DNA of 64,000 nt from an uncultured delta proteobacterium (GTDB lineage: Bacteria > Myxococcota > Myxococcia > Myxococcales > Anaeromyxobacteraceae), in assembly GCA_963828255.1 (NCBI GenBank), contig CAWHDZ010000017.1, forward strand, positions 32,001 through 96,000, given 5' to 3'. Position numbers and translations under genes: made by a program. Positions 21,927-36,981 of the stretch are shown one piece after another. Below the pieces are notes generated by a model, which was given only the letters and a program-made list of their open reading frames with translations, made no database searches and was not told where the DNA came from. The number at the start of each line of letters is the position of its first letter. The stretch's first letter is position 1.

Positions 21927-23181
<1,255 letters not shown>

Positions 23182-23195
23182 AAATCAACGATGCT

Positions 23196-23267
23196 TGGGC
23201 GGAGCAGGTTTCGAACCTGCGACCCTCGCCTTGTAAGGGCGACGCTCTACCCCTGAGCTATCCGCCC
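23196..23267 (-). tRNA. tRNA-Val(TAC), CCA not encoded
   Basis: GGGCGGATAGCTCAG...TCGCCCT TAC AAGGCGA...GGTTCGAAACC...TCCGCCCA. Confidence 0.95.
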
Positions 23268-23405: not shown

Positions 23406-26099
23406 ATGAGCTGGAAGAAGGGGCAGAAGCTCGTCCACCGGGCCCAGCCCGCGTGGGGCGTGGGCATCGTGCTGGAGGTGGGCGAGGACGCCCGCCGCCT
23501 CGCCGTGCGCTTCGCCGGCCGCGAGGGGGTGACGGTGGTCTCCGGGCGGGACAAGGCCCTCATCGCCGTCCCCGACGAGACTCCGCTCGATCAGCCGGCC
23601 GGCGGCCTCCTCGACCGGCTCACCTCGGGCGACGCCGGCCCCGCCAGCGCCTTCGCGCTGCGAACCCGCGTCGTCCGGCTCGAGGCCATGCGCCGCGCCG
23701 ACAGCCTGGGCGCGCTCCTCTCCTCCCGCGTCCACGTCCTGCCGCACCAGGTCGGCGCCGCCGGCCGCATCCTCGCCGACCGGACCCCGCGCTTCGTTCT
23801 GGCCGACGAGGTCGGTCTCGGCAAGACCATCGAGGCCGGCCTGGTCTACGCCGGCCTGCGCCAGCTCGGCCTCGCCGACCGGGTGCTGGTCGTCGTGCCC
23901 GAGCACCTCGCCTTCCAGTGGATGGCCGAGCTCTTCCACAAGTTCAACGCGCTCTTCACGCTCCTCTCCCCCGACCGCGTCGTCGCGCTGGGCGGCCCGG
24001 AGGCCGCGCTCGCGCAGTCGAAGCTCGCCATCCTCTCCCAGGAGCAGCTCGCCTCGGACCCGGCCGTCGCCGCCGCGGCCGCCGCGCTGGCCTTCGACCT
24101 CGTCATCGTGGACGAGGCCCACCACCTGGCCGATGACCGGCTCTTCGAGGCGGTGGCGCCGCTGGCCCGTTCCTCCTTCGGCCTGCTGCTGCTCACCGCC
24201 ACGCCGGTCCGGCTCGATCCGCGCGAGTACTTCCGCCTGCTCTCCCTCGTCGAGACCGTGCCCACCACCACGCTCGAGGACTTCCTGGCCCGGCTCGAGT
24301 CGCACGAGGCCTACGCCGCGGTGGCCCGCGACCTGCTCGCGGGCGGCAAGGTCGAGGACGGGCTCTCCCGGCTGCGAAAGCTCTCCCCCGACGATGAGGC
24401 CTTCGTCGCCCCGGCCGGCAAGAAGAAGGGGCCGTCGCGGGCCGCGCTCCTCGAGCACCTGGCCAGCCGTTACGGCCTCTCCTCGCGCCTCGTCCGGAAC
24501 CGGCGCGTCAAGGTGGGAGCGTTCACCCGGCGTGTGCTGCGTCGCCAGGACGTTCCGGAGGGCGGCAAGATCGAGGCGGCCGCGGCGCTGTGCGGCCGGC
24601 TGGCCCGCGACGGGGAGAAGGTCCTGGTCTTCGGCGGCGACCTGGACCGGCTGCGGGAGCTCCAGGCACGCATCGCCTCGGCGGAGAAGCTCGAGGCCCT
24701 CCTCTACGACGACGCGCCCAGCCTGGAGGCCCGCGACCGGCTGGTGGCCCGCTTCCGCGATCGGGAGGGGCCCATGCTGCTCCTCTCCGGCGAGTCGGGC
24801 GGCGAGGGGCGCAACTTCCAGTTCGCCTCGCACCTCATCTGCCTCGATCTTCCCGACTCCCCGCTCACGCTCGAGCAGCGCATCGGCCGGCTCGACCGGC
24901 TGGGCCAGGCGCGCCCGGTCGAGATCCACGTCCTGCCCGAGCCCGGGGAGGAGGCCTTCCTGGCCGACCTCTACGAGAAGGAGATCGGCATCTTCGACGA
25001 GCCGGTGGGCGGCCTCGACGCCGTGCTGGCCTCGGTGCCGGAGGAACTCACGGCCTTGCGGACCCGGCGCACCGAGAAGGCGCGGCAGGCCTTCAGGAAG
25101 GGGATCGCGGCGCGCGTCGCCGAGGGGCGGCGCGCCCAGCACGAGGGGTACGACCCCCTGCTCGACGTGCGTTCGGCGTCGATCCCGGAGCTGACCGCGC
25201 TGGTCTCGGCTGCCTTCGCGCGGATGGGCGAGGATCCTCCCGAGGACGGGGAGGAGATCGGCGCCTCGCTCTCGACCCTCTCCCGCTGGCTGGAGGAGGA
25301 GCTGGAGGAGCTGGTCGTCGAGGCCGGGCGTCGCGTGGGCATGGACGTGGACACCGACGAGAACGTCCACCCCTTCGAGTCGGCCTTCACCTTCGGGTCC
25401 AGCATGCGCATCGAGGCCCTGCCCGGCATGGAGATGCCGGAGGAGGAGCGCACCCTGCTGGGCAGCTTCTGGCGCGAGACCGCGGTGGTCCGCGAGGAGC
25501 TGGAGTGGTTCGCCACCGGCCACCGGCTCGCCGAGGCGCTGCTCGAGCTGGCCCGCGACGGCGAGGCGGGCCGCACGGCATTCCTGCAGTCCCGCGCCGC
25601 CCCCCGCAGCGGCGGCCTCTACCTGCGCTGGAAGCTTCGCTGGTCGTCGCCGGCCGACCTGGCGCCGGGCGCGCGGGTCCCCTCCCGGCAGGCTTCGCGC
25701 TACCTCGACGAGTCGCCGCTGTCGGTGCTCGTGGACATGGGCGGCGCCCACGCCATCGTCGATGGCGGGGCCGGACGGCTCGAGGAGTCGATCGACCGGG
25801 CCCGCGACGCCAAGGGCGCGCCCCCGCCCGGTGACGTCCTCGGGCCGGCCGCGGAGGCGGCGGAGGAGGCCGCGCGCGCCGAGCTGTCCCGCCGCGTTGC
25901 ACGCGCGGTGAAGAAGCTGGCTTCCCATGCCGAGGCCGAGGAGGAGCGGCTGGTCTCGGCCGCGCTGCAGGGCGGCGCGTCCCGGCAGTCCGTGGAGCGT
26001 GCGCTCGTCGCGGTGCTCCTGCACCGGGAGCTGGTCGAGGAGGCGCTCGGCAAGGTGGCCCTCGAGCTCGACGCCGCCGCGGTGGTCCTCCCGGGGTAG
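23406..26099 (+). CDS. rapA: RNA polymerase-associated SNF2-family ATPase RapA/HepA-like
   Basis: LPHQ, LADEVGLGKTIEAG, DEAHH, LLLTATP, GGEGRNFQFA, EQRIGRLDRLGQ. Confidence 0.85.
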   Translation: MSWKKGQKLVHRAQPAWGVGIVLEVGEDARRLAVRFAGREGVTVVSGRDKALIAVPDETPLDQPAGGLLDRLTSGDAGPASAFALRTRVVRLEAMRRADSLGALLSSRVHVLPHQVGAAGRILADRTPRFVLADEVGLGKTIEAGLVYAGLRQLGLADRVLVVVPEHLAFQWMAELFHKFNALFTLLSPDRVVALGGPEAALAQSKLAILSQEQLASDPAVAAAAAALAFDLVIVDEAHHLADDRLFEAVAPLARSSFGLLLLTATPVRLDPREYFRLLSLVETVPTTTLEDFLARLESHEAYAAVARDLLAGGKVEDGLSRLRKLSPDDEAFVAPAGKKKGPSRAALLEHLASRYGLSSRLVRNRRVKVGAFTRRVLRRQDVPEGGKIEAAAALCGRLARDGEKVLVFGGDLDRLRELQARIASAEKLEALLYDDAPSLEARDRLVARFRDREGPMLLLSGESGGEGRNFQFASHLICLDLPDSPLTLEQRIGRLDRLGQARPVEIHVLPEPGEEAFLADLYEKEIGIFDEPVGGLDAVLASVPEELTALRTRRTEKARQAFRKGIAARVAEGRRAQHEGYDPLLDVRSASIPELTALVSAAFARMGEDPPEDGEEIGASLSTLSRWLEEELEELVVEAGRRVGMDVDTDENVHPFESAFTFGSSMRIEALPGMEMPEEERTLLGSFWRETAVVREELEWFATGHRLAEALLELARDGEAGRTAFLQSRAAPRSGGLYLRWKLRWSSPADLAPGARVPSRQASRYLDESPLSVLVDMGGAHAIVDGGAGRLEESIDRARDAKGAPPPGDVLGPAAEAAEEAARAELSRRVARAVKKLASHAEAEEERLVSAALQGGASRQSVERALVAVLLHRELVEEALGKVALELDAAAVVLPG

Positions 26100-28659: not shown

Positions 28660-29442
28660 GTGGCCCTTCACTTCTGGAAATACCACGGCCTGGGGAACGA
28701 CTTCGTCGTGGTCGAGGGCGGCGCGCCCATGGCGCCCGGGCGAGCCGTGGCCATCTGCGACCGGCACCGCGGCATCGGCGCCGACGGCGTGCTCGGCGTC
28801 CTGCCGGCCCGTGACGGCGGCGCCGCCCGCATGCACATCTTCAACCCGGACGGCTCGGTGGCCGCCATGTGCGGCAACGGGATCCGCTGCGTCGCGCGCC
28901 ACCTGGCCGAGACCCGCGCGCTCGACGGCGAGATCGTCATCGAGACCGATTCCGGGCCGCGCACCTGCACCGTCCACCGCGGTCCGGCCGGGGTGGACTC
29001 GGTCACCGTGGAGATGGGGCGCGCCCGCATCGAGGGGACCCAGGAGTTCGTGGTCGGCGTCGAGCGGGTGCGCACGCTCCGCGTCTCCATGGGAAACCCG
29101 CACGCCGTGATCCTGGACGGACCCGACGCGGCCCGTGCCGGCGTCCTGGGTCCCGCCATCGAGGCCCTGGTGCCGGGCGGCGTGAACGTCGGGTTCGGCC
29201 AGGCCGCCGGGTCTTCCGTGGACCTCGTGGTCTGGGAGCGGGGCGCCGGTCTCACCGAGGCCTGCGGCACGGGCGCCTGCGCCGCGGCGGTGGCCGCGCT
29301 GCACGAGGGGCGCCTCGACGGATCCGGCCCGGTGACGGTGTGCCTCCCCGGGGGCGCGCTCGAGATCACGGTCGGCCCCGATCTCGCCGTGCGCATGAAG
29401 GGGCCGGCGGAGAAGGTTTTCGAGGGGGAGACGGAGTTGTAG
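28660..29442 (+). CDS. dapF: Diaminopimelate epimerase
   Basis: KYHGLGNDF, GIGADG, MCGNGIRC, SMGNPHAV, WERGAGLTEACGTGACA. Confidence 0.95.
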   Translation: MALHFWKYHGLGNDFVVVEGGAPMAPGRAVAICDRHRGIGADGVLGVLPARDGGAARMHIFNPDGSVAAMCGNGIRCVARHLAETRALDGEIVIETDSGPRTCTVHRGPAGVDSVTVEMGRARIEGTQEFVVGVERVRTLRVSMGNPHAVILDGPDAARAGVLGPAIEALVPGGVNVGFGQAAGSSVDLVVWERGAGLTEACGTGACAAAVAALHEGRLDGSGPVTVCLPGGALEITVGPDLAVRMKGPAEKVFEGETEL

Positions 29443-29466
29443 GCAACAGCCGCGAAGGCGGCGCAG

Positions 29467-29790
29467 TCAGTGCGTCAACCTCCACAGCATGGCGAGTACG
29501 CGGTCGCAGAAACCCAGCGTCCTCGCGGTGGCGTCAGCTCCCAGGTACCCGAACGCCTCCGCCACCCGCAGGCAGGCGACCACCTCGTCCGCGCTGCCCG
29601 CGGCGACGCGAAACAGGTGGAGGCGGTCCTTCCCTTTGCGCCGGCTGCCCTCGCTCACGTTCAGCGGAACGGACGCTGCGGCGCGGCGGAGCTGTCTCGC
29701 GAGGTCCGGGTCTCGCCGGTCCAGATTCGCAAGCGGCCCCTCGAGCGACCGGGCCATCTCGAGAGCGACCTCGAACGCGTGAAATGTCAT
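29467..29790 (-). CDS. Four helix bundle protein (23S rRNA IVP/Avd-like family)
   Basis: [23 protein letters not shown]...[11 protein letters not shown]...[19 protein letters not shown] 6 nt upstream. Confidence 0.9.
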
Positions 29791-29797
29791 CTGCGGC

Positions 29798-29921
29798 TCC
29801 TTTCGGGTGGGGTTTGCCCCATCCGGCGCAGGACCCGTGACAGCCCGACGCGGGATCCACCCTCGAACGACCGCGGGCTGGCGCGGGGCGTGCGCCACCG
29901 AGGCAACCCCACCCGAAAGGA
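29798..29921 (-). promoter_or_regulatory. Leader stem-loop (~20-bp stem, 83-nt loop) covering the RBS of the four-helix-bundle gene
   Basis: TCCTTTCGGGTGGGGTTTGCC (29798-29818) versus GGCAACCCCACCCGAAAGGA (29902-29921): 17 perfect bp, a 1-nt bulge, then 3 bp. Confidence 0.75.
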
Positions 29922-29923
29922 CC

Positions 29924-30091
29924 GAGTCGGAGTCGGAGTCGGAGTCGGAGTCGGAGTCGGAGTCGGAGTCGGAGTCGGAGTCGGAGTCGGAGTCGGAGTC
30001 GGAGTCGGAGTCGGAGTCGGAGTCGGAGTCGGAGTCGGAGTCGGAGTCGGAGTCGGAGTCGGAGTCGGAGTCGGAGTCGGAGTCGGAGTCG
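29924..30091 (+). repeat. Perfect hexamer tandem repeat (GAGTCG)x28
   Basis: Counted directly, 168 bp. Confidence 0.97.
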
Positions 30092-30140
30092 GAAAAAATC
30101 AACTAATAGTGACACGCGTTCGCTGAACGGGCATCCATCT

Positions 30141-30320
30141 CCGAACCCGAACCCGAACCCGAACCCGAACCCGAACCCGAACCCGAACCCGAACCCGAAC
30201 CCGAACCCGAACCCGAACCCGAACCCGAACCCGAACCCGAACCCGAACCCGAACCCGAACCCGAACCCGAACCCGAACCCGAACCCGAACCCGAACCCGA
30301 ACCCGAACCCGAACCCGAAC
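30141..30320 (+). repeat. Perfect hexamer tandem repeat (CCGAAC)x30
   Basis: Counted directly, 180 bp. Confidence 0.97.
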
Positions 30321-30329
30321 CCGCCCCGT

Positions 30330-30632
30330 CTACTCCTCCCCCAGCGCCGCCCTCACGATCGGATTCGTGAGCAGCATCCGGTACTCCGCCGGGCTGAGCC
30401 ACGCCTCCCGGCTTCCTCCCCGGTACGCGAGCGACACCCTCACCCTCCCGTCCCTCGCCTCGACCCGCGCCGGCCAGCCCGCCTCCAGGTCCCTCTCGAT
30501 GGATCTCAGATGTCTGGCGATCCTGACCGCCCGCCTTCCCTCCGGCGACGACAGCGCGAGGAAGTGCCTGTTGCGGCTGAAGCCGCGGTCCTCGCGCATC
30601 CGGCGCACTGCGAGCTCGACGAAGCCTGCCAT
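30330..30632 (-). CDS. Hypothetical protein
   Basis: 100-aa ORF ([29 protein letters not shown]) co-oriented behind the hemerythrin gene. Confidence 0.65.
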
Positions 30633-35005: not shown

Positions 35006-36019
35006 ATGCAGAAGGCGGAGCGACTCCTCGACCTGGCGGCCCTCCTGCTGCGCGCCTCGGAGCCGGTCTCCTGGCGCGAGATCCAGGAGCAGTTCCCCGA
35101 GGACTACGGCGGCAGCGGCGAGGCGGCCATCCGCAAGTTCGAGCGGGACAAGGCCGAGTTGCTCGAGCTGGGGATCCCCGTCCGCTGGCTGGGCGGCGAC
35201 GAGGACCTCCCGGCCGGCTACCTGGTGGACAAGGAGGACTTCTACCTCCCCGACCTCAAGCTGCCCCCCGAGGACCTGGCGCTCCTCTACCTGGCCGGCT
35301 CGGCGGCGCTGGCGCAGCGCGCCTTCCCCTACGCGCGCGACCTGGCCCACGCCATGAACAAGCTCTCCTTCGCGGCGCGCGCACCGGGCGCCTCGGAGGT
35401 CGCGGCGGTGGCCTCGCTCCAGCTCTCTGCCGACGATGCGGACCAGGCCTCCCGGGCCGAGTCCTCGGCGCGGCTCGAGGCCCTCTCCATCGCGGTGGCC
35501 GGAAAGAAGCGGGTGCACCTGGTCTACGCCGGCGCCGAGCGGCAGGCCCGCACCGAGCGTGACGTGGAGCCCTACGGCCTCTACCAGCGGGGCGGCGCCT
35601 GGTTCGTGACCGGGTTCTGCACGCTGCGCCAGGACATCCGCAGCTTCCACCTGGGGCGGATCGTTTCGCTCACGGTGAACCCTGCAGCGCCGCGGACCCC
35701 CGACTTCGAGCCCCGCGAGGGCTTCTCGCTGGCCGAGCTCGCCACCCGCGAGTCCTGGGAGTTCGGCGTCCACGCCCCGGTGCGCTGCCGGGTGCGGCTC
35801 GACGGCCCGGCCAGCCCCGAGGAGCGCGACTCCTTCGGGCCGCGGGCCACCTGGAAGGAGTCGGACGGGCGGTCCGTGGCCGAGGTGATGGCCACCAACC
35901 AGGAGGCCTTCCTGCGCCACGTGCTCTCCCTGGGCGACCGGGCCGAGATCCTGGCGCCCCGTCCGCTGCGCGAGCGGGCCCGCAAGGTGCTGGCGTCGCT
36001 GGCCCGGAGGGTCTCGTGA
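35006..36019 (+). CDS. HTH-WYL-WCX transcriptional regulator, PafB-like
   Basis: KAERLLDL, RKFERDKAELLELGIP, RDVEPYGL...WFVTGFCTLRQDIRSFHLGRI. Confidence 0.88.
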   Translation: MQKAERLLDLAALLLRASEPVSWREIQEQFPEDYGGSGEAAIRKFERDKAELLELGIPVRWLGGDEDLPAGYLVDKEDFYLPDLKLPPEDLALLYLAGSAALAQRAFPYARDLAHAMNKLSFAARAPGASEVAAVASLQLSADDADQASRAESSARLEALSIAVAGKKRVHLVYAGAERQARTERDVEPYGLYQRGGAWFVTGFCTLRQDIRSFHLGRIVSLTVNPAAPRTPDFEPREGFSLAELATRESWEFGVHAPVRCRVRLDGPASPEERDSFGPRATWKESDGRSVAEVMATNQEAFLRHVLSLGDRAEILAPRPLRERARKVLASLARRVS

Positions 36020-36981
36020 CCCGCAAGGCCGCACCGGTCAAGGCCGACGCCCGGGACCGGCTGCGCCGGGTGCTCTTCCTCGTCCCCTACGCGGTCCGCC
36101 ACCCGGGCGTTCCGGTGCGGGAACTGGCCCGCAAGTGCGGGGTCCCTGAGAAGCAGATCCTCGAGGACCTCGACTTCCTGCTCGGGGTGGGCTGCCCCCC
36201 GTTCGCGCCCGACGACTTCCTCGACCTCTACGTGGAGGGGGACCGGGTCCACGTGGCCCTCCACCAGAGCTTCTCCCGCCCGCCGAGATTCACCGAGAGT
36301 GAAGCAGCGGCGCTGGCCGCGGCGGCCCGCGCGCTGGGCGGGGAGGGGACGGAGCGGGTGGTGCGCGCCCTGCGCGAGGCGGTCCCGCGCGACCGGCGCG
36401 CCATCTTCGAGGAGCTGCTCGCCTGCATCTTCGCCGGGTCGCCTCCGGCCAGGGACTCGCTCCTCGGCCGCATCGAGCAGGCCATCGCCGCCCGCCGGGC
36501 CCTGCGCATCCGCTACTTCACCGCCACACGCGGCGAGGAGAGCGAGCGGGTGGTGCACCCGTACACGCTCGCCCAGCGGCTCGGCCACTGGTACCTGTGG
36601 GGGCACGACGAGGGGCGCGGCAAGGCGCTCCCCTTCCGGCTCGACCGCATCCGCGAGTGCGCCGTGGACGAGAAGCGCTTCGAGCCGCCCACCGACGCCG
36701 AGCTGGCGCGGGGCCGCCTCTTCTCGGAGGCCAGCGGCCCCCCGGTCCGGCTGCGGCTCGGACCGGTCGCCGCGGCCTGGGCGCTGGCCCGGCCCGGGCA
36801 GTGGCGGGTGGTGAAGCGCGACCGGAAGGGCGGGGCCGAGGTCGAGGTCCCCGGCGTGAGCGACGAGTGGGCCACGCGCTTCGCCCTGTCGTTCGGAGGT
36901 GACGCCGAGGTGCTGGGCCCCCCGCCGGCCCGGCGCCACTTCGGCGACGCGGTCCGGCGCGCCCTGGCCCGGTATCCGTGA
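36016..36981 (+). CDS. HTH-WYL-WCX transcriptional regulator, PafC-like
   Basis: RLRRVLFLVPY..RHPGV, SRPPRFTESEA, RVVHPY..WYLWG..FRLDRI; GTGA overlap. Confidence 0.88.
   Translation: MTRKAAPVKADARDRLRRVLFLVPYAVRHPGVPVRELARKCGVPEKQILEDLDFLLGVGCPPFAPDDFLDLYVEGDRVHVALHQSFSRPPRFTESEAAALAAAARALGGEGTERVVRALREAVPRDRRAIFEELLACIFAGSPPARDSLLGRIEQAIAARRALRIRYFTATRGEESERVVHPYTLAQRLGHWYLWGHDEGRGKALPFRLDRIRECAVDEKRFEPPTDAELARGRLFSEASGPPVRLRLGPVAAAWALARPGQWRVVKRDRKGGAEVEVPGVSDEWATRFALSFGGDAEVLGPPPARRHFGDAVRRALARYP

Follow-up and report, generated by a model that had tools for sequence, protein, structure and literature searches.

We found that the four-helix-bundle gene beside dapF in the 64,000-nt stretch of DNA analysed here (the window) is part of a repeat-armed cassette which is present in six full-length copies in this 4.3-Mb genome (tblastn search) and which, judged by the occupancy of its sites in relatives, is mobile in the comparative sense. 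We give a probability of about 0.5 to the reading that it is a multi-copy, transposase-less selfish cassette which is gained, lost, inverted and exchanged at gene ends, with a hairpin predicted to block read-through translation and a protein that would bind the leader or the repeats. An earlier interpretation of the window (the sequence-only reading) had taken the cassette for a stand-alone unit, which the six copies contradict.

The cassette occupies 887 nt on the minus strand, between the stop codon of a host gene for a hypothetical protein (30330) and that of dapF (29442). In minus-strand order it consists of an outer array, (GGGTTC) x30.5 (CCGAAC on the plus strand; 30141..30323), which begins 6 nt past the host stop codon, an AT-rich spacer (30094..30140), an inner array, (CGACTC) x28.3 (GAGTCG on the plus strand; 29924..30093), a 133-nt leader with a conserved hairpin (29791..29923), the 107-aa open reading frame (29467..29790) and a 24-nt tail (29443..29466), in which the mirror-image downstream array of many relatives is missing. 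Both arrays are 100% perfect, and the spacer measures 47 nt between the called arrays or 49 nt if partial units are counted. The coordinates, the perfect repeats and the profile scores given below confirm that twin hexamer arrays and a four-helix-bundle gene lie between dapF and a hypothetical gene. This upstream gene (30330..30632, minus strand) encodes 100 aa and is present in 50 of 61 relatives; its product has no match in a Pfam profile search and a single, uninformative match, at 0.76, in an Atlas search. On the other side, dapF (28672..29442, plus strand), identified by profile matches, is convergent with the cassette gene.

The array lengths are assembly values, and public reads were compared with the array-free part of the locus. 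Genome G010, which belongs to another species, has both arrays at this site, separated by a spacer that resembles the one in the window and with the outer array in a shorter version, so that the arrays are not an artefact of one assembly. A one-unit stub of the outer array is found in the empty allele of a 97%-identical population. The two arrays are predicted to pair with each other at five of six positions as RNA and at four of six as DNA. We detected no sigma-70 consensus in the spacer and no intrinsic terminator at the cassette. In one of four RNA runs, contigs of relatives, mostly less than 95% alike, cover the open reading frame and the leader, a coverage that does not demonstrate transcription. 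We also considered the arrays as coding sequence, as a Ser-Asp frame enters the open reading frame here. We rejected this, because leader lengths differ by single bases among copies and the open frames range from 123 to 894 codons. The spacers inside the arrays (window 30094-30140; L052; L047-L050; L220) often hold a TCAC-N4-6-GTGA palindrome, which also occurs in a distant subfamily and may be a protein-binding site.

The 107-aa protein matches PF05635 (E 9e-15) and TIGR02436 (E 1e-15), both past the curated cut-off (57.8 against 24 bits and 55.2 against 33.8 bits). It is related to XCC0516 (2GSC) and BT_0352 (2RLD) of the same family, with a sequence match to 2GSC (E 1.4e-6), and its predicted structure consists of four helices (pLDDT 95) in the fold of 2GSC, 2RLD and Avd (TM 0.74-0.84). 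The gene is under strong purifying selection, as indicated by a median dN/dS of 0.19 over 429 pairs; the window copy and its G010 orthologue differ by a dN of 0 and a dS of 0.14. Among 128 family sequences, 93-99% have the residues Q33, R36, S40, N44, E47, G48, A63 and E69, and the polar ones among them (Q33, R36, S40, N44, E47, E69) are near-invariant. Close homologues are assigned to Anaeromyxobacteraceae by their sources. Viral contigs held neither a protein relative nor the leader pattern, and plasmids gave a single weak match, in Nostoc.

The match to Avd (4DWL; TM 0.74) might hint towards an orphan accessory module of a diversity-generating retroelement or towards an RNA that is retro-mobilised by a reverse transcriptase acting in trans. 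An assembly artefact may be added to this group of explanations, with which the loss of the 5' part from the copy in G006 would be in line. The identity to Avd is only 9%, however, no match to the reverse transcriptase profile PF00078 was found in this genome or in seven of nine carrier genomes of the genus, and the arrays recur in independent assemblies. We regard these possibilities as largely refuted. An Avd-like partnership with a reverse transcriptase is not supported. The observation that neither rRNA nor a reverse transcriptase is present holds; the window contains three tRNAs and no rRNA. According to the available text of a preprint, Avd forms a pentamer with a positive charge and binds to a stem-loop of RNA (bioRxiv 10.1101/2023.10.23.563531). 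Sharing its fold, Avd provides a model for the proposed leader binding. The Avd target described there is a tetraloop stem of about 9 bp, whereas the leader forms a long hairpin with internal mismatches, and the cassette genome has no linked reverse transcriptase.

A hairpin of about 20 bp over the ribosome-binding site (RBS) had been noted before. The stem is real, but it is merely the base of a hairpin of about 133 nt that spans the whole leader (folding z -5.6, 0 of 200 shuffles). This basal stem (29923-29905 with 29814-29795) covers the Shine-Dalgarno sequence (29803-29797), while the core (29896-29878 with 29843-29825) is asymmetric and invariant and has three near-invariant mismatches, kept in 36, 42 and 41 of 43 leaders. 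The leader covaries: among 43 distinct leaders, 95.4% of cells are paired and 15 of 29 pairs have two-sided changes, and none of 500 shuffles and no slid register comes near. Rfam covariance models gave two chance-level matches, neither of them on the leader. Of 191 family genes, 61 are preceded by a match to the core pattern, some of them in distant subfamilies, compared with 23 of 3000 background windows. In some copies the core is deleted and the RBS stem alone is kept.

In this genome the leader is confined to the six cassettes, and over 61 genomes a covariance model of the leader gave matches in 11. The listed matches are all at cassette genes except three, two of which are near contig ends, one of these running on into unrelated sequence, while the third is an ORF-less remnant. 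Intact leaders are always coupled to the gene, and the leader occurs only with the four-helix-bundle gene or its remnants. The proposed module of a protein and a cis-RNA is supported as a module of a protein and a cis-element, given the covarying leader found only with the gene and the enriched repeat flanks; as to RNA, the wobble pairs (7 G-U against 9 A-C) show no preference between RNA and DNA. The predicted unpaired probability is 0 at five of the seven Shine-Dalgarno positions in the whole leader, and the Shine-Dalgarno sequence is predicted to be partly free in a transcript that starts at the 3' arm. On these folding predictions the leader likely silences read-through translation. By analogy to Avd, it may also bind the protein.

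It is conceivable that the leader represents two sigma-54-like promoters arranged back to back, a remnant of an ancestor with two divergent genes, and that the pairing is a by-product of palindrome correction. Such promoters have the consensus GG-N10-GC. The alignment shows GG-N10-GC in the antisense arm and GT-N10-GC in the sense arm, divergent gene pairs exist, and a start near 29816 is predicted to free part of the Shine-Dalgarno sequence. However, the sense arm is without GG and the GC is forced by the pairing. Across the genome there are 27 intergenic matches, compared with 13 and 14 for shifted spacers, and the GT form occurs 2 times compared with 1 and 1. We consider this origin highly improbable.

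Each of the six copies has the leader and an upstream array, and all six lie between protein genes. Compared to the window copy, the leaders are 87-97% and the open reading frames 73-84% identical, so that the leader is more conserved than the gene. Two copies in this genome differ by a dS of only 0.02. Perfect arrays of at least 30 nt (period 1-12) are found seven times in the genome, six of them inside cassettes. The repeat units vary from copy to copy, although two other copies carry the exact reverse complement of the inner array of the window; 62 of 74 distinct units contain CCG or CGG, to which GC-richness contributes. Scoring the flanks of the family revealed a strong enrichment for tandem repeats: a periodic flank is present in 60 of 105 Myxococcota clusters at 90% identity, compared with 2 of 600 genes in the control set and 11 of 732 windows at distal positions, and in 13 of 36 clusters at 60% identity, where the clusters are kin and the counts are not independent. 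Mirror-image arms, with the downstream flank being the reverse complement of the upstream array, were found in 9 of 30 scored copies (scores 59-201). The window copy scores 9 and is without terminal inverted arms. The arrays reach the host stop codons and have no fixed end sequence.

Among 151 Myxococcota genomes, 54 contain the family, with copy numbers from 0 to 29 or more, and some genomes have 27-29 or more copies. In many myxobacteria the gene is arranged as convergent or divergent pairs (L047-L050, L107, L166-L169, L172-L180, L046, L183), and where the two genes are divergent, the RBS of either one can pair with the leader of the other.

An empty dapF site was indeed found in relatives. 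We retrieved 30 loci with the upstream host gene, 14 of which could be scored beside dapF, as dapF was not seen adjacent in the other 16. Four of the 14 sites are filled, eight are empty (gap -4 to 17 bp, one of them scored by eye) and two hold another gene. Public DNA-run contigs, one of which is 97% identical over 533 nt of dapF, show the host stop codon about 15 nt past dapF, and one such empty-site contig retains a single array unit. Among the four filled sites, one has lost the leader and the start codon, one has a shortened hairpin and one is divided between two contigs. Copies with truncations or frameshifts are also present. A clade of the four filled genomes is rejected on the host tree (p-AU 0.0012).

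The distribution over the genus is similarly patchy, with close copies in 9 of 14 genomes. By mapping the flanks we identified seven sites that are common to several species, and the same sites are filled, empty or oppositely oriented in congeners, with both orientations occurring at four of the seven. This genome has no cassette at one site, which in the sister species is interrupted by arrays. In a tree of 31 open reading frames the copies group by genome and not by site, and AU tests reject one clade per site at all seven shared sites (p 2e-71 to 0.004). In two genomes, G010 and G002 (L039, L007), flanks that belong to different sites in other species are found together, which may be due to recombination or rearrangement through cassette copies or to mis-assembly. 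On a longer host tree the carriers form two well-placed groups and the base is not resolved. Hence repeated insertion explains the pattern no better than an old insertion with subsequent conversion, inversion and loss, and since the carriers may form one clade, new insertions may be rarer than the patchiness suggests. Overall, the suspected mobility is supported by the empty sites, the inversions and the insertion sequence (IS) carriers described in the following.

Three other myxobacteria (G101, G142, G087) carry the gene, together with its repeats, inside transposase-bearing ISs bounded by CTAG/TA. In G101 (L150, L151, L153, L329) an IS5-type element (PF13340/PF01609) holds the gene between short inverted arrays. 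The right end of this element is followed by TA in 17 of 17 loci, the left end was seen in 14 and the transposase is inside in 4; the remaining loci hold transposase-less forms, including ones with two right-type ends, and one copy is located exactly at a host TAG stop codon. In G142 (L159-L165, L334-L343), a bin with 9% contamination, an element with PF13751 and PF05598 has scrambled internal parts and, at 13 of 18 loci, is flanked by CTAG at either end. In G087 (L455-L457) the gene follows an HTH_29/HTH_32 transposase, and at all three loci each end of the element lies in CTAG; a 77-aa piece of this transposase gave no Pfam match. From their domain sets we take the elements of G142 and G087 to be of the IS1182 and IS630 type, respectively. 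Since the arrays flank the gene inside the IS of G101, it appears that the IS captured the gene rather than gave rise to it. The IS-borne proteins sit in another part of the protein tree than those of the window's lineage, and monophyly of the IS5- and IS1182-borne proteins is not rejected (p 0.09).

In the window's lineage, no copy has a terminal inverted repeat, a target duplication or a linked transposase. Searches for PF13751, PF01609, PF01797, PF13340 and PF05598 in five genomes each found none adjoining a copy of this lineage. As to a cognate transposase in this genome, we found one broken IS5 whose own ends are unlike the cassette, and the other DDE loci are likewise unlike it. Hence, IS delivery is only an analogy for this lineage. 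The ends of the broken IS5 (L441) resemble those of the G101 carrier, and it has no passenger. Targeting of TAG or CTAG was considered for the window's lineage and rejected, as TAG is present anyway in 157 of 202 close convergent junctions and a preference could not be told from background.

The cassette could also be a self-mobilising element, with the four-helix-bundle protein as a mobility or repeat-generating factor acting on the hairpin and the arms in the absence of a transposase or reverse transcriptase, and the ISs having merely captured it. Several multi-copy genomes do lack PF13340 (G001, G036, G063) or PF05598 (G001, G036), and the constant coupling of intact leaders to the gene, the near-invariant polar residues and the purifying selection also speak for it. 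Moreover, an old hypothesis, cited in the available text of Warrier et al. (PMC4990558), regards the ORF of intervening sequences as a mobility component. However, the fold is that of 2GSC, 2RLD and Avd, none of which is described as an enzyme in the texts consulted, the cassette has no defined ends, new sites are few, and the transposase survey covers three transposase families and Y1 in five genomes each. Taken together, we consider self-mobilisation possible but doubtful.

Mobilisation in trans was considered for a REP-like element, whose hairpin would be recognised as single-stranded DNA by a Y1 (RAYT-type) transposase. Each of the five genomes tested has one such gene (one of them at L200:1114-1872), and the hairpin is without RNA-strand bias. 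The Y1 gene is single-copy and weakly scoring, though; the nearest cassette is some 26 kb away, and the surroundings of the Y1 gene contain no leader match. Unlike REP/RAYT systems, the leader is found only at the six cassettes, the Y1 gene is unlinked and the swarm of short ORF-less copies typical of REPs is missing. A movement of this kind appears very unlikely.

The insertions are accompanied by a codon footprint on the adjoining host genes. Where host genes read into arrays, the third positions of the last ~80 codons are depleted of C and enriched in G. Eight host genes that end next to an array were compared between filled and empty genomes. Over the final 20 codons, the mean of G/(G+C) at third positions is 0.80 in filled and 0.49 in empty genomes (8 of 8 ends), after exclusion of genomes with remnants or a replaced insert from both groups, and it falls to 0.52 and 0.43-0.44, respectively, by codons 60-100. 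As the species are kin, this is a pattern over eight sites and not a formal test. The skewed ends are that of the window (30330-30450) and seven others (L384, L404, L428, L324, L344, L364); in the window's host gene (30330-30632), the last 40 codons have 28 G and 9 C at third positions. High or intermediate values were found in genomes with remnants or a replaced insert, and little or no skew at two gene ends without an adjacent array. The gene divIVA, which is not among the eight ends, is weakly shifted. Five of the 30 most skewed among ~2994 called gene ends of this genome abut a cassette.

Two candidate causes of the skew are that pairing to array sequences is avoided and that the antisense strand is kept C-rich for termination by Rho. 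Break-resection was rejected as a cause on a single divergent flank that has no shift (3 filled against 4 empty genomes), which is a weak test. We found no paper on a codon skew of host gene ends at such inserts.

The footprint bears on the question of whether the cassette is a domesticated host device, in which the arrays, the hairpin and the protein would terminate or insulate where two genes converge, the turnover being incidental. Convergent gene ends enclose 5 of the 6 copies here and 6 of the 7 shared sites, compared with 601 of 2954 junctions genome-wide (rough gene calls). The adjoining gene ends shift their codon letters while a gene transcribed away does not (one case), and the twin arrays are predicted to be able to form a long duplex. 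Nevertheless, very close relatives have no cassette at the same site, 5 of 14 genomes of the genus are without a close copy, the repeat units and their orientation are not conserved, and the cassette has no detectable intrinsic terminator. Such a role is, in our view, improbable. The repeated use of the same seven sites, together with the slowness of the codon skew, indicates a long residence, which is also expected of an element that is useful to the host.

Among known systems, the ORF-bearing 23S rRNA intervening sequence (IVS) comes close to the cassette. The IVS of Coxiella burnetii with its S23p protein is described, in the available text of the report, as a small selfish insert of sporadic distribution with a 28-bp stem and a poorly accessible RBS (PMC4990558). 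As far as described there, the cassette shares the protein family, the small and, on the preferred reading, selfish nature of the insert, the sporadic distribution and the poor access to the RBS, and also an ORF enclosed by inverted repeats, here only in two-armed copies. It differs in that it lies outside rRNA, has microsatellite arrays as arms instead of a 28-bp stem, has a separate covarying leader, is multi-copy at gene ends and has an ORF under purifying selection rather than decay.

Established mobile classes also include passenger-carrying ISs, mobile insertion cassettes and MITEs of the IS5, IS1182 and IS630 type. The likeness to these is that true IS ends enclose the gene in G101, G142 and G087, with full and transposase-less forms in G101, and that dispersed copies with empty sites in relatives occur in the window's lineage. 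In this lineage, however, there are no IS ends or target duplications, and a cognate transposase was not found in the genome. From the comparisons listed, we conclude that the cassette behaves as an ORF-bearing IVS would outside rRNA and, in some lineages, as a passenger of ISs, without belonging to either class.

The arrays resemble those of Xanthomonas and Nostoc (PMC4692102) and of Beggiatoaceae (PMC4679880), where intergenic 6-7-mer arrays, dispersed and often in inverted pairs, have been reported as being of unknown origin; as far as the main texts go, they are alike in being short-unit, dispersed and intergenic. The main texts of these two papers contain no mention of a helix-bundle or S23 gene. 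A full-text literature search, mostly of papers outside subscription and including PMC10053308, PMC8700078 and PMC10910872, found no description of repeat-armed TIGR02436 cassettes or of their carriage by ISs.

Taking the preferred reading of a transposase-less selfish cassette, new sites would be reached as a passenger of ISs of the carrier type or by recombination, and resident copies would be overwritten by homologous gene conversion. Mirror-image arms would drive inversion and clean loss, and the window copy would have lost its downstream arm. The basal stem would silence the gene on host read-through, while an internal start would free the RBS. The protein, putatively a pentamer by analogy with 2GSC and Avd, would bind the invariant core or the CCG-periodic repeats and might thereby regulate or stabilise its own cassette. 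One may go further and propose a distinct mobile class without transposase or reverse transcriptase. Here a small pentamer would recognise the hairpin motif and the CCG-periodic repeats, bring about the spreading or maintenance of the cassette that encodes it and give rise to intergenic microsatellites. Unrelated IS families would have acquired it as an accessory factor, and host gene ends would be forced into a C-to-G recoding over ~250 nt. We regard this wider proposal as speculative and rather unlikely.

The function of the IVS/S23p/TIGR02436 family has been an open question since the early 1990s, and the locus gives concrete handles on it. The covarying hairpin with its three invariant mismatches is a candidate ligand, the near-invariant residues can be mutated, and natural alleles exist in which the site is filled, empty or inverted. 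In addition, the IS5 that occurs with and without transposase allows the effect of the passenger on transposition to be measured. Moreover, the cassette suggests a source of the puzzling intergenic 6-7-mer arrays. The C-to-G gradient is a measurable mark of a 0.9-kb insert on housekeeping genes, among them smc, polA and hemN. It could help to find and date lost insertions.

Other features of the window include a tyrosine integrase (PF00589) at 21927-23267, whose frame overlaps a tRNA-Asp (23105-23181) and adjoins a tRNA-Val; this region is likely the edge of an integrated element. A RapA-like SNF2 helicase is encoded at 23406-26099 and a PafBC-like WYL/WCX gene pair at 35006-36981.
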